This document shows, in pieces, positions 27,543 to 31,196 of a stretch of 39,673 nt of DNA; position 1 is the first letter of the stretch, and the number at the start of each line of letters is the position of its first letter. The notes beneath the pieces were generated by a model that did no database searches, was not told the origin of the DNA, and worked only from the letters and a program-made list of their open reading frames with translations. This DNA comes from a virus (taxonomy: Duplodnaviria; Heunggongvirae; Uroviricota; Caudoviricetes). A program made the position numbers and the translations under genes. The stretch lies in the IMG/VR virus record IMGVR_UViG_3300045988_165115. One strand, given 5' to 3'.

Positions 27543-28036
27543 TAAGCCCCCACGTAATTCCCTGACAGATACCACTCTTCACCCGATGCAGCGCGCTTGC
27601 TGCTTTTCCGTAAGCACCGCTCACGACGTGCCAGAAAATTGTTTCGTTCTGGCTGGGAGTGGCTTTCACGGAATGCCGCCATCCACACGGTTGCAGCACG
27701 ACGGTATAAGCCCCTTGACTCCAGTTCTTCAGCCTGGCGGGTCAGGCATAAAATCACCCGGGGATCGTTAGTGCCGACATAGAAATTGCGCACAGGTCTG
27801 GTTTCACGAACTGGTTGTGGTTCCGGCTCCTGCGCTCTCTCAGTCAGGCGCGGGAAATGTCTGCGTGTATCTCCTTCACAACGGTGAGCCACACGCCCAC
27901 TCTGACGTAACTTGCTTGCTGACTGCAGAACGCGCTGCCGTGAGTAACCTGCAAAAGCATCCGCAATGTCTCCGGAAGTACAGCCCGGATGGGCTTCAAT
28001 GAATTTCTGAACGTCATTCAAAAGACTCATGCTCAC
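27542..28036 (-). CDS. hypothetical regulator, winged-helix-like N-terminus and PerC-like C-terminal segment (tentative)
   Basis: 164 aa; C-terminal LESRGLYRRAATVWMAAF resembles the PerC family signature as recalled; overlaps the replication gene stop. Confidence 0.35.
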   Translation of the reverse strand: MSMSLLNDVQKFIEAHPGCTSGDIADAFAGYSRQRVLQSASKLRQSGRVAHRCEGDTRRHFPRLTERAQEPEPQPVRETRPVRNFYVGTNDPRVILCLTRQAEELESRGLYRRAATVWMAAFRESHSQPERNNFLARRERCLRKSSKRAASGEEWYLSGNYVGA

Positions 28037-28974
28037 CCCCTGAATCCTGCCGGGATCTGGCTGTAGTCCACATTGTCGTAACTGGCTTTGAAGTACGGGT
28101 CTTCGCGTTTTTCTGTGTACGTGCTGACGGACGGCGATAAGCGCAGGGAAAGCTCATCCCATTTTTCCCGCAGCTTCGACGGGCTGAGCACGTTACGGCA
28201 CCAGAACGGATCGCGGCTGACGCGGCTGTACATCTCGCAGATTTGTTTGTGAGTACGACCATCCTGCACACACATCAGGCGAATTTCGTTTGCCCAGGCT
28301 GTCCAGTTCGGTTCTTTGGGACGAACCACCTCGCCGTCACATTCGGCAGCCTGCTCGTACAGGGCGATGATTTTTTTCCAGAGCCACTGTGCGCAGGTCA
28401 AATCATCCTGCGTCCCCCACTGGCGCTTTTTAGGGCTGAATACAACCGCATCAGGATGGCGAGTTAAAAAATCCTGTTCAGCCGTCTGCGTGTCCGGTTG
28501 CGAAGCGTCCGGACGAGAAGTTTTTTTATCTGACGGATCATGTTTTGATTTTACTGACGGATCCCCGCCAGATTCTGACGGGTGAAAACCCGCTTTTTTG
28601 CCAGATTTCGACGCATCAAATTTTGACGGGTCAGATTTTGATGCGTCAGATTTTGACGGGTCAGAATCTGACAGTTGAGAAAATGCCGCTGCCTGAAGCT
28701 TCGCAACGTTAAGCTGATAAACATTCGACGCATTGCGGTTACCCTGGCGACGCGCCTTACGCGTTAACCAGCCTTCTGCTTCCAGCCGTGCGATAGCCGT
28801 TCTGACGGTACTCATCCCCGCGCCAATCTGACGGGCAATGGTTTTAATTGATGGCCAGCACACACCTTCGTCATTACTGAAATCAGCCAGGCGGGCCATA
28901 ATTGCCACGCTGGATAACTTCATGCCTGATGCAGCGCAACCATCCCATACATAGCCGGTTAATTTAGTGCTCAT
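28033..28974 (-). CDS. replication initiator / replisome organiser (lambda O-like) with internal iterons
   Basis: 313 aa; winged-helix N-terminus, a central SDPSKSDASKSDPSKFDASKS repeat encoded by the DNA iterons, and a conserved C-terminal domain. Confidence 0.7.
   Translation of the reverse strand: MSTKLTGYVWDGCAASGMKLSSVAIMARLADFSNDEGVCWPSIKTIARQIGAGMSTVRTAIARLEAEGWLTRKARRQGNRNASNVYQLNVAKLQAAAFSQLSDSDPSKSDASKSDPSKFDASKSGKKAGFHPSESGGDPSVKSKHDPSDKKTSRPDASQPDTQTAEQDFLTRHPDAVVFSPKKRQWGTQDDLTCAQWLWKKIIALYEQAAECDGEVVRPKEPNWTAWANEIRLMCVQDGRTHKQICEMYSRVSRDPFWCRNVLSPSKLREKWDELSLRLSPSVSTYTEKREDPYFKASYDNVDYSQIPAGFRG
28528..28678. repeat. iteron array, putative replication origin inside the initiator gene
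   Basis: At least six direct repeats of about 15 bp, consensus CAGATTTTGACGGG, at 28569, 28601, 28616, 28631, 28646 and 28661, the last four with a 15-bp period. Confidence 0.7.
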
Positions 28975-28983
28975 GACCGACCT

Positions 28984-29322
28984 CTATTTCCCTGAATTTA
29001 CGACGAAACTGTTCGAGCGGACTGAAGCATTCATGCTCATAACCTTCGCGGAGGTAGATAACCCGTTGTGTTTCCGGCTCCCAACGAATGACTCTGACGG
29101 GCACTCCGTAGTGATCTTTGAACCAGCGGTTAACTTGTCGCAAAGGACTGTCTCCTTCTGCCGGTTGAAATCACCCACAGCCCACTCTGCAAAGCTGTGG
29201 GTTACAATTTCCCTGTCACCTGGTACATTCACTGCATAGCAATATTCCACCTTCGCTTTTCCACCCGGTACCGGAAGCGCAATCAGTTGCGAGCGACGGT
29301 AGTGTGTTGTTAAACTGTTCAT
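28984..29322 (-). CDS. hypothetical early-operon protein, positional equivalent of e14 ymfM
   Basis: 112 aa between the YmfL-like gene and the replication initiator. Confidence 0.4.
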
Positions 29323-29876
29323 GCGTTAGTTTCTCCACAACCAGAAGCAATCGACGCCACGACGCCCGGAGCTGCACACTCGCGGGCGTCATTACTTTCT
29401 GAAATGCAAAAAATTTTGTAGACAAGTGCTGCATGCTCCTGCAGCTTCGAAATTGAGAGATACAGCTCGTCGTTAATTGCTGTCTTCTCATGCGGTTCCA
29501 CTACACCGTCTTCGATTGCTGAACGAATCTGTTTTGAATAACTGCCGATCTGTTCAATGACTTCCAGCAGACGCTGGTTAATATCGGCGTTGTCCACATC
29601 CTCGACGTCAGGAAGAGACACAAAGACGCCATTTGCAGACTGCGCCACAGCATCAGCAATGAAGTGAGTGCCACCAGCACGCTGTAAAACCATTGCCCAT
29701 CCCAGCGGGAAAATCTGATCGCCATCTGCACGAAGGCGGTTGAATAAAGCGTTTTCTGTTACATCGAGCCAGTCAGCCGCTTCAGCGTAACCACCCGGCA
29801 ACGCCGCGATAGTTTTTCTGACAGCTTTCACGTACCACTCAGGCTGTTTTTCTATTTTCCAGTGATGCTTACCCAC
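29319..29876 (-). CDS. hypothetical early-operon protein, positional equivalent of e14 ymfL / lambda cII
   Basis: 185 aa directly downstream of cro with overlapping stop/start. Confidence 0.45.
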
Positions 29877-30129
29877 GGTTCACCTCCTGTTCCTGTGGTT
29901 TAAACCCATTCTGATTTTGGCTAGATTGAAAACGTGCCGGATAAAGAATCTGCATTTCGCTGACTTCACCCTTAAAAAAATTGGCTAAACGTTCTGCAAG
30001 CTCGATAGATGGAATCTGCTCCAGCCTCTCAATACGACTCAACGTCGCTGGATTGACTTGAACACCCGCAGCAACATGCTGCAAAGTGAAACCATGCGCC
30101 TTACGCACATTTCGTAATGGTGATTGCAT
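29869..30129 (-). CDS. Cro-like HTH (XRE-family) regulator
   Basis: 86 aa; helix-turn-helix LQHVAAGVQVNPATLSRIE; divergent from the cI-like repressor across a 97-bp operator region. Confidence 0.8.
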   Translation of the reverse strand: MQSPLRNVRKAHGFTLQHVAAGVQVNPATLSRIERLEQIPSIELAERLANFFKGEVSEMQILYPARFQSSQNQNGFKPQEQEVNRG

Positions 30130-30140
30130 ATACCCTCCAA

Positions 30141-30226
30141 ATATTGCGCGTTATGCATGTTATTTCACGCAATTATTTTGCGCAAGTTGATTTGCTTATC
30201 ACGCAATAAAGAAATGTAATAAACGC
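30141..30226. promoter_or_regulatory. cI/cro divergent operator-promoter region with repeated TTGCG/CGCAA half-sites
   Basis: Half-sites at 30144 (TTGCGCG), 30166 (CACGCAA), 30178 (TTGCGCAA) and 30200 (CACGCAA); 15-bp palindrome CGCAATTATTTTGCG at 30168-30182. Confidence 0.6.
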
Positions 30227-30919
30227 ATGAACATAGGAAACCGAGTCAGACAACTTCGCCAAGCGAAGAACATGAAAATCGCCGATCTCGCTGAAGCAAT
30301 AGGAGTAGATGCGGCGAACATCTCGCGCTTAGAAACGGGTAAGCAAAAACAATTTACCGAACAAACACTGAGTAATATTGCCAAGAGCTTAGGTGTTGAT
30401 ATTGCTGATCTCTTTACCTCTGCCCTCAAAAGTAATACTGTATATAAAAACAGTAATAATGAGGATGTTGCGCAGGTGAAGGATGTGTTCCGTATTGAAA
30501 TGCTGGATATCAGTGCCAGTGCGGGAAATGGCCTTATCCAGGGCGGTGATGTCATTGATGTGATTCATGCCATCGAATACAGAACTGATAATGCTGTATC
30601 AATGTTCGGCGGACGACCAGCCAATCACATCAAAGTTATCAACGTTCGTGGGGACAGTATGTGTCCAACCATTGAGCCAGGAGATCTCATCTTCGTTGAT
30701 GTCAGCATCAATCAGTTTGATGGTGATGGTATATATGTCTTTGGTTTTGATGACAAAATATACGTTAAAAGACTTCAAATGATTCCTGACAAACTGCTGG
30801 TGATTTCTGATAACCAGATTTACCGTGAATGGGGAATTACTAGCGAAAACGAACACCGATTCATGGTCTTTGGAAAGGTCTTAATCAGTCAGTCGCAAAC
30901 CCTTAAGAGACATAATTAA
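30227..30919 (+). CDS. CI-like prophage repressor (HTH_XRE plus S24 LexA-like autopeptidase)
   Basis: N-terminal HTH (NMKIADLAEAIGVDAANISRLETGK) and C-terminal S24 motifs (GDSMCPTIEPGDLIFVD ... KRL). Confidence 0.9.
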   Translation: MNIGNRVRQLRQAKNMKIADLAEAIGVDAANISRLETGKQKQFTEQTLSNIAKSLGVDIADLFTSALKSNTVYKNSNNEDVAQVKDVFRIEMLDISASAGNGLIQGGDVIDVIHAIEYRTDNAVSMFGGRPANHIKVINVRGDSMCPTIEPGDLIFVDVSINQFDGDGIYVFGFDDKIYVKRLQMIPDKLLVISDNQIYREWGITSENEHRFMVFGKVLISQSQTLKRHN

Positions 30920-30938
30920 CCTCAATATCCCATCCATC

Positions 30939-30963
30939 GGCCACCGAAAGGTGGCTTTTTATT
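30939..30963 (+). terminator. rho-independent terminator downstream of the repressor gene
   Basis: GCCACC-GAAA-GGTGGC hairpin followed by TTTTTATT. Confidence 0.75.
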
Positions 30964-31196
30964 ACCCATCATTTTGCATATATCGCAATATTACTTGCAT
31001 ATCTCGCAATTTAATTTTATCTTTTGTTCCAGACCAACTACAGGATTACAACAAAATCTGGTTGCAAAACGGTGCATGTGTCGTAAGCGGTCAGTAAATG
31101 TCAAAAACGAACAGGCAGGACGCCCACGAAGTAGCAGCCTGGGGCATATGAAGTCCAGGATGATTCGTTAGCGGATGATTTCAGTGGAGAGAATAG

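Follow-up and report, generated by a model that had tools for sequence, protein, structure and literature searches.

Which DNA elements are read by the repressor and by Cro at this locus, and how are they arranged? The question is raised by positions 30141-30226 of the window (the whole 39,673-nt stretch of viral DNA that was analysed), where an earlier note had recognised TTGCG and CGCAA pentamers between two divergent regulatory genes and had read them as the operators of the immunity switch. Our comparison of related immunity regions indicates that this stretch is very probably the OR of a lambdoid CI/Cro immunity cassette (approximately 29905-31105) of an SfII-like prophage, in which 15-bp dyads are the predicted operators.

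Immunity locus and flanking genes

By sequence comparison, the window corresponds to an SfII/SfI-like temperate phage or prophage, with structural genes that are 97% identical, and its immunity region shares 97.9% identity with that of Shigella phage SfII. The two flanking genes are indeed Cro-like and CI-like, as had been proposed. The first, taken from the ORF list (29869-30129, minus strand), encodes 86 aa with a Pfam HTH_3 domain (E=5e-10) and carries the annotation 'cro' in SfII. The second (30227-30919, plus strand) encodes a 230-aa repressor, which is annotated as CI in SfII and is 99.6% identical to SfII CI. Its N-terminal HTH domain (HTH_3, 1e-11) is followed by a C-terminal S24 self-cleaving peptidase domain (Peptidase_S24, 6e-19), and the residues A99-G100, S144, and K181 are invariant among seven aligned homologues. 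The two genes are divergent, and the spacer from the cro ATG (30129, minus) to the cI ATG (30227, plus) measures exactly 97 bp by ORF coordinates, the length given in the earlier note. A CII/CP76-family (YmfL) gene, identified from the ORF list and Pfam (29319-29876, minus), adjoins cro.

The Shine-Dalgarno sequence of cro, GGAGGG, can be read directly at 30133-30138 on the minus strand, and the corresponding Cc.Cct block is conserved in the column consensus of 14 loci. An intrinsic terminator of cI is also read from the sequence (30940-30963, plus), with GCCACC-GAAA-GGTGGC followed by a T run, and the SfII record has a putative rho-independent terminator annotated at the same place.

The immunity cassette shows mosaic boundaries at about 29905 and 31105, and the exchangeable block of approximately 1.2 kb contains all six dyads described below. 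SfIV and PhiR49_1, which have e14-type immunity, match the window with 94-98% identity as far as about 29904, a point at the 3' end of cro and the beginning of cII, and their similarity to the window resumes from about 31106, at the leader RNA.

Predicted recognition unit

The half-sites first noticed in the spacer are present, with TTGCG at 30144 and 30178 and CGCAA at 30168, 30181, and 30202, that is, five pentamers in 63 bp (30144-30206). TTGCG (30178) and CGCAA (30181) overlap in the 8-bp palindrome TTGCGCAA. With 79 pentamers in 39.7 kb, about 0.19 are expected per 97 bp, and the Poisson probability of finding at least five is 1.6e-6 per 97-bp interval, or about 6e-4 when corrected for about 400 intervals. 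Under a first-order Markov null, in which the pentamer is over-predicted (125 vs 79 observed), at least five were reached in 27 of 1000 simulations (2.7%). The clustering of pentamers is, on its own, of moderate significance, and the evidence for a 15-bp dyad is much stronger.

We compared the DNA upstream and downstream of cI across nine phages, including SfII, mEp460, F1055, ST64B, a Klebsiella phage, phiNP, Flotzy, and ENT47670, in which CI is 99.6% to 50% identical to that of the window. An unbiased enumeration of every 4-mer dyad with spacers of 0-12 over 15 non-redundant loci ranked TTGC-N7-GCAA first, with 29 occurrences in 3.3 kb of regulatory DNA versus 2 in 45 kb of background. Based on the comparison of approximately 37 related immunity regions, the operator unit is predicted to be a 15-bp convergent dyad, TTGCR-N5-YGCAW. 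The centres of its half-sites are 10 bp apart, as would be expected if a 434-type helix-turn-helix domain bound as a dimer.

We then scanned the 39.7-kb window with a weight matrix whose training sites all came from five other phages. The top four matches were 30995-31009 (18.5 bits), 30192-30206 (18.3 bits), 30974-30988 (18.3 bits), and 30144-30158 (17.2 bits), the fifth-best match reached only 10.4 bits, and shuffled sequence yielded 0.04 matches of at least 17 bits per window. A plain search for TTGCG-N5-CGCAA with at most one mismatch found three matches in the whole window, none of them outside the two regulatory regions. Two degenerate partner halves, TGCAT (30154-58) and TTGCT (30192-96), had been overlooked at first. 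The earlier note was therefore right to see the operators of a CI/Cro switch in the spacer and a half-site in TTGCG/CGCAA, but the way it paired the half-sites, the palindrome that it put forward, and the extent of 30141-30226 have to be revised; the predicted set reaches beyond the spacer, to 30094-108 in cro and to 30974-31009 at OL.

Two other groupings were considered and dropped. Units of 29 bp (TTGCG at 30144 with CGCAA at 30168, and 30178 with 30202, 34 bp apart) were abandoned because the half-site at 30168 lacks conservation. A resemblance of CGCAA-N5-TTGCG to the PurR box was rejected since the spacing is wrong, the central CG is missing, and the motif varies together with the HTH of the phage.

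Predicted operators and promoters in the cro-cI spacer

Two strong dyads, both predicted operators, are found 48 bp apart in the spacer: the OR1-like '-76 site' (TTGCGCGTTATGCAT, 30144-30158) and the OR3-like '-28 site' (TTGCTTATCACGCAA, 30192-30206), named after the distance in bp from their centres to the cI ATG, the latter being as consensus-like as the former. Between them is a weak, OR2-like middle site, composed of TTGCGCAA (30178-85) and a degenerate partner, which can be read either as 30178-30192 (TTGCG CAAGT TGATT; -42) or as 30171-30185 (AATTA TTTTG CGCAA; -49). TTGCGCAA provides one perfect half-site in either register, and TTGCGCAAGTT is invariant in the relatives. At least nine of the ten half-site bases are present in 21/37 loci for the -42 reading and in 10/37 for the -49 reading. 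Both readings score below 0 bits in the window, where the middle site would be at best weak and dependent on cooperativity.

The column consensus of 14 relatives displays, in order, the dyad in cro, the start codon and Shine-Dalgarno sequence of cro, TTGCGT.tT..GCAT followed by aTTAtt, a 13-bp non-conserved gap, TTGCGCAAGTTg.TTTGCatA...CGCAA, TGTAAT, and the cI ATG. In 29800-30500, a stock scan for sigma-70 promoters and terminators detected no promoter, as only 3/6 bases of the -35 hexamers match, and we assigned putative promoters from this conservation and from a relaxed scan.

On the minus strand, the relaxed scan proposes TTGCGC-17-TAACAT as PR, with a putative -35 (TTGCGC, 30185-30180) inside TTGCGCAA, a putative -10 (TAACAT, 30162-30157; TAATAT in relatives) in the conserved block GCATaTTAtt, and a probable start near 30150. 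Both the putative start and the final 2 nt of this -10 lie within the 30144-58 dyad; the overlap with the hexamer TAnnAT could explain why the right end of the -76 site, ...GCAT, is fixed. On the plus strand, TTGCTT-17-TGTAAT is the best candidate of the relaxed scan and probably corresponds to PRM. Its -35 (TTGCTT, 30192-30197) is provided by the left half of the 30192-206 dyad, and its -10 (TGTAAT, 30215-30220) is 6 nt ahead of the cI ATG, a distance that is fixed in the relatives, which would place the start at the A of the ATG. As no Shine-Dalgarno sequence precedes cI in any relative compared, this position of the -10 suggests a leaderless cI mRNA.

In the GenBank records of mEp460 (L002 1958-2605) and phiNP (L086 1546-2196), cI starts at the internal Met16. 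These annotated starts are probably wrong: the 15 codons before Met16 are conserved, the Pfam HTH_3 domain begins at residue 7, and TGTAAT lies 6 nt ahead of the upstream ATG, all of which favour the longer, leaderless ORF.

Predicted sites in cro and downstream of cI

The fifth-best match of the matrix is a weak operator-like dyad (ATGCGCCTTACGCAC, 30094-30108) in codons 8-12 of cro, at about +49 from the putative PR start. This site had been left out of matrix training. Its position, -126/-127 from the cI ATG, is conserved, phiNP, Flotzy, and Kluyvera have a perfect dyad there, and at least nine of ten half-site bases are kept in 16/37 loci. On the OR side, the three best sites, namely those within cro, over the PR start, and at the PRM -35, are approximately 48-50 bp apart. 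In the cro site, Leu is encoded by TTG and Ser by TCG in all relatives, and the third codon bases that coincide with the free operator positions 6 and 9 vary. Such fixed synonymous choices at operator positions suggest selection on the DNA rather than on the protein.

Downstream of the cI terminator, a pair of strong dyads is present in 9/9 phages compared, with a spacing of 21-24 bp among the closer relatives. In the window, these predicted operators are the OL2-like TTGCATATATCGCAA (30974-30988) and the OL1-like TTGCATATCTCGCAA (30995-31009), the best match in the window, whose position is conserved across relatives. The left half of the OL1-like dyad is the putative -35 (TTGCAT) of PL, which combines with a putative -10 (TATCTT, 31018-31023, plus) into TTGCAT-17-TATCTT, the best plus-strand candidate, with a start near 31030. 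SfII, mEp460, the Klebsiella phage, phiNP, and Flotzy all retain the sequence 'TTATCTT', and the putative PL would transcribe the early-left genes. The OL dyads are at about -49 and -28 of this promoter, which is the geometry of the middle and -28 sites relative to PRM.

A different layout of the same kind of dyad is observed in ENT47670-type relatives (L088, L109-L122; CI approximately 50% identical), in which the downstream sites abut, with centres 15 bp apart (ATGCGCTTGACGCAT directly followed by ATGCGCTATACGCAT), and lie approximately 140-160 bp after the cI stop versus approximately 60-85 bp elsewhere. Moderate dyad matches are also found in mEp460 (L002 162-176, 10.3 bits) and F1055 (L003 156-170, 14.2 bits), at the same place in both, about 1750 bp upstream of cI in a rha/antirepressor-like gene that is absent from the window. 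These could be an additional CI site or a chance occurrence.

Conservation of the dyads and the proteins that they follow

One genome per bacterial species was scanned, which yielded 77 loci, and we took the 37 in which the CI recognition helix N-(I/L/V)-S-R-(L/V)-E is kept (CI identity 100% to 46%). The -76 and -28 sites retain at least nine of ten half-site bases in 36/37 of them, a type of count that overstates the evidence, as these loci are related and not independent. The central five bases vary freely. With regard to very close relatives, an IMG/VR scan with CI returned 80 loci, all approximately 100% identical, which were used for SNP placement only; the SNPs cluster at the cro leader (30131-33), 30173, and 30175, and the half-sites are almost never hit.

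The dyads disappear with the DNA-binding domains. No such dyads are found in L123-L138, where the C-terminal domain of CI is kept and the HTH is different, nor in SfIV and PhiR49_1, where a near-identical CII is accompanied by e14-type CI/Cro and which exhibit TGTACC/GGTACA repeats instead. Based on these absences, the dyads appear to travel with the DNA-binding domains of CI and Cro rather than with CII, the S24 domain, or the host. In a MAFFT alignment, the recognition helices of CI and Cro both carry S33, R34, and E36 (S-R-x-E), which fits with the two proteins reading the same half-site. BLASTP gave no alignment between the N-terminal domain of CI and Cro. The subgroup typified by ENT47670 (CI approximately 50% identical, helix VGNLSRLERG) exhibits ATGCG-N5-CGCAT, a small shift at the outer base.

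Alternative readings of the repeats

The anatomy proposed in the earlier note, in which the pentamers are independent half-sites and a 15-bp palindrome is the core operator, for example as an OR2 over the PR spacer and -35, now seems improbable. The palindrome itself exists (CGCAATTATTTTGCG, 30168-30182): with perfect 5-bp arms around a non-palindromic centre, it is the only zero-mismatch CGCAA-N5-TTGCG in the window. SfII, mEp460, and Citrobacter L090 retain its left arm despite differing bases between the arms, and a 33-bp unit, ATWTTGCGC...TCACGCAAT, is present twice, 34 bp apart. As an operator, it is contradicted by its orientation and by its conservation. The two arms are divergent, opposite to the conserved sites, which are all convergent; CGCAA at 30168-72 is misoriented to pair with 30178-82, and one dimer geometry cannot read both arrangements. 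This left arm, located in the PR spacer, behaves as an orphan half-site, as it is kept only where CI is at least 93% identical and lost wherever CI is at most 83% identical (it is missing in ST64B, F1055, phiNP, Flotzy, and ENT47670), whereas all other half-sites persist. It also falls within the only non-conserved 13-bp stretch of the spacer and has a SNP in 1/80 near-identical loci.

It is more conceivable, although still rather unlikely, that only two OR operators work (30144-58 and 30192-206), with TTGCGCAA serving purely as PR -35 and context and the dyad in cro being a by-product of coding. The negative scores of the middle site in both registers would fit with this, as would the minus-strand TTGCGC, the best conserved candidate for the PR -35, and the low score of the site in cro, where L-R-K is a motif often seen at the N terminus of HTH_3 proteins. 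However, the middle dyad is complete in locus L092, where both halves of the -42 reading are perfect (TTGCGCAAGTCGCAT), its -49 counterparts reach 15-17 bits in the Klebsiella phage and in Rosenbergiella, and the synonymous choices of the site in cro are fixed at operator positions and free at positions 6 and 9. The probability is very small that the protein binding the repeats is instead the neighbouring CII-like (YmfL/CP76) product or a host factor, or that the repeats are only -35-like elements. TTGC does resemble the start of a -35 hexamer, three dyads overlap putative -35s, and a CII-family gene adjoins cro, but a near-identical CII next to a different CI/Cro comes without dyads, the dyads are gone when only the N-terminal domain of CI differs, and the -76 and in-cro sites keep a full dyad away from any -35 position.

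Proposed operation of the switch

With the 15-bp convergent dyads as operators, the locus could operate as follows. CI dimers on 30144-58, over the -10 and +1 of PR, would shut off this promoter of cro, and CI dimers on 30974-88 and 30995-31009 would shut off PL, so that, together with the PR site, lytic transcription would be silenced. The site at 30192-206, which covers the -35 and spacer of PRM, would be the point at which excess CI, or Cro, turns cI off. TTGCGCAA, which carries the PR -35, would be a half-consensus site that is probably filled only cooperatively, and a weak fourth site would lie in the first codons of cro. Cro should bind the same dyads by means of its S-R-x-E recognition helix. 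Self-cleavage of CI is expected from the presence of the Ala99-Gly100 site and of the Ser144/Lys181 dyad; once stimulated by RecA, cleavage at A99-G100 via S144/K181 would lift repression and induce the prophage. A lambda-style order of occupancy, in which PR is turned off before PRM, is assumed here.

A wiring unlike that of lambda, with a looped or wrapped higher-order CI complex, purely negative autoregulation of cI, and no OR2-type activation, appears unlikely. It is suggested by the half-site -35s, the spacing of approximately 48-50 bp, and the presence of a full-strength operator in the cI promoter, and the OR/OL/OD arrangement of TP901-1 provides a model for such a looped or wrapped complex.

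Comparison with known switches

Like lambda, the locus exhibits cI and cro genes that diverge from a spacer of about 100 bp, a CI that combines HTH and S24 domains, an apparently leaderless cI mRNA, operators that overlap promoters, with spacer dyads over both putative promoters, and a second operator cluster (OL) downstream of cI, before the early-left promoter. The operators of lambda are 17 bp long, with three evenly spaced OR sites. In contrast, the present ones are 15-bp dyads, the OR side comprises two strong sites, a degenerate middle site, and a site in cro, the -35 hexamers of all three putative promoters (PR, PRM, and PL) are operator half-sites, and no N homologue was noticed. The 434 repressor and Cro share the HTH_3 N-terminal fold, half-site centres approximately 10 bp apart, and a non-contacted centre, but their half-site sequence differs, the 434 operators being 14-bp ACAA-N6-TTGT. 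The nearest solved structures include 434 repressor chains (1sq8, 4.5e-5; 1per, 2e-3), a distant similarity only.

The closest systems are those of the mEp460/ST64B/SfII immunity group, which also includes LLS, with CI identities of 99.6% for SfII, approximately 96% for the mEp460 type, and 83% for ST64B. All members of this group have dyads at -126, -76, and -28 as well as downstream of the cI stop. The immC region of ST64B (sb38-sb40) confers functional immunity according to Tucker & Heuzenroeder 2004, as cited in PMC3901673. Among repressors of known specificity, the nearest by tblastn are P22 C2 (approximately 43% identity) and HK022 CI (approximately 42%), which have the same domain architecture. 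Since this similarity lies largely in the C-terminal domain (PMC12315714), shared operators are not expected. The e14 element, with YmfK/YmfT, has its neighbours cII (YmfL), ymfM, and O-type genes in common with the window and differs in immunity. It was rejected as a model, as YmfK is 100% identical to SfIV CI and the window CI aligns over a 39-aa S24 core only.

The operator specificity of the present group of repressors was called unknown in a 2025 paper (PMC12315714), and our search of the searchable literature returned no operator description for SfII, e14, ST64B, or mEp460, nor any for TTGCG/CGCAA operators. A paper on sRNA-17 that was linked to mEp460 looked unrelated. The locus resembles a lambda/434-type switch in every testable defining feature, and the predicted operator set, for a widespread immunity group, is apparently unreported.

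The cassette at 29905-31105 is present in 1040/5426 complete E. coli genomes, which places it among the commonest immunity cassettes in this species, and it is also found in the Shigella serotype-converting phage SfII, in Salmonella ST64B, and in some O157:H7 Stx2a phages. The general understanding of CI/Cro switches is unchanged by these results. The map of six predicted sites and three putative promoters is sufficient for designing EMSA and footprint probes and reporter mutants, and it could serve to predict homo- or hetero-immunity between prophages, for instance between the TTGCG and ATGCG groups.

Leader RNA and other elements near the cassette

A structured non-coding element (AACGAACAGGCAGGACGCCCACGAAGTAGCAGCCTGGGGCATATGAAGTCCAGGATGATTCGTTAG, 31106-31171, plus) is located in the leader of the putative PL transcript. 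It is also present in SfII, ST64B, F1055, phiNP, and Flotzy, as well as in SfIV and PhiR49_1, which belong to the other immunity type. RNAalifold predicts an outer stem around two hairpins, with three pairs that show compensatory changes. The element has no match in Rfam and no similarity to the early region of HK022 with which it was compared. The put RNA of HK022 occurs in two copies (putL and putR) of approximately 70 nt, downstream of PL and PR, each with two stem-loops. The location of the present element after PL fits with put, but it occurs in a single copy in the window and its predicted topology differs. The element at 31106-31171 is a candidate put-like antiterminator RNA. Relatives that lack N have been speculated to use the put mechanism (PMC12315714).

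In the window, SfII, and mEp460, approximately 75-80 nt separate the putative PL start from the leader RNA (31031-31105). ST64B, phiNP, and Flotzy are devoid of this stretch, and their leader element begins approximately 10-20 nt after the -10. On the other side of the cassette, four tandem 15-bp repeats (CAGATTTTGACGGGT, 4.3 copies) are observed at 28602-28665, inside the O-like gene (28033-28974, minus). Such repeats in a replication-initiator gene resemble the iteron origin within lambda O.
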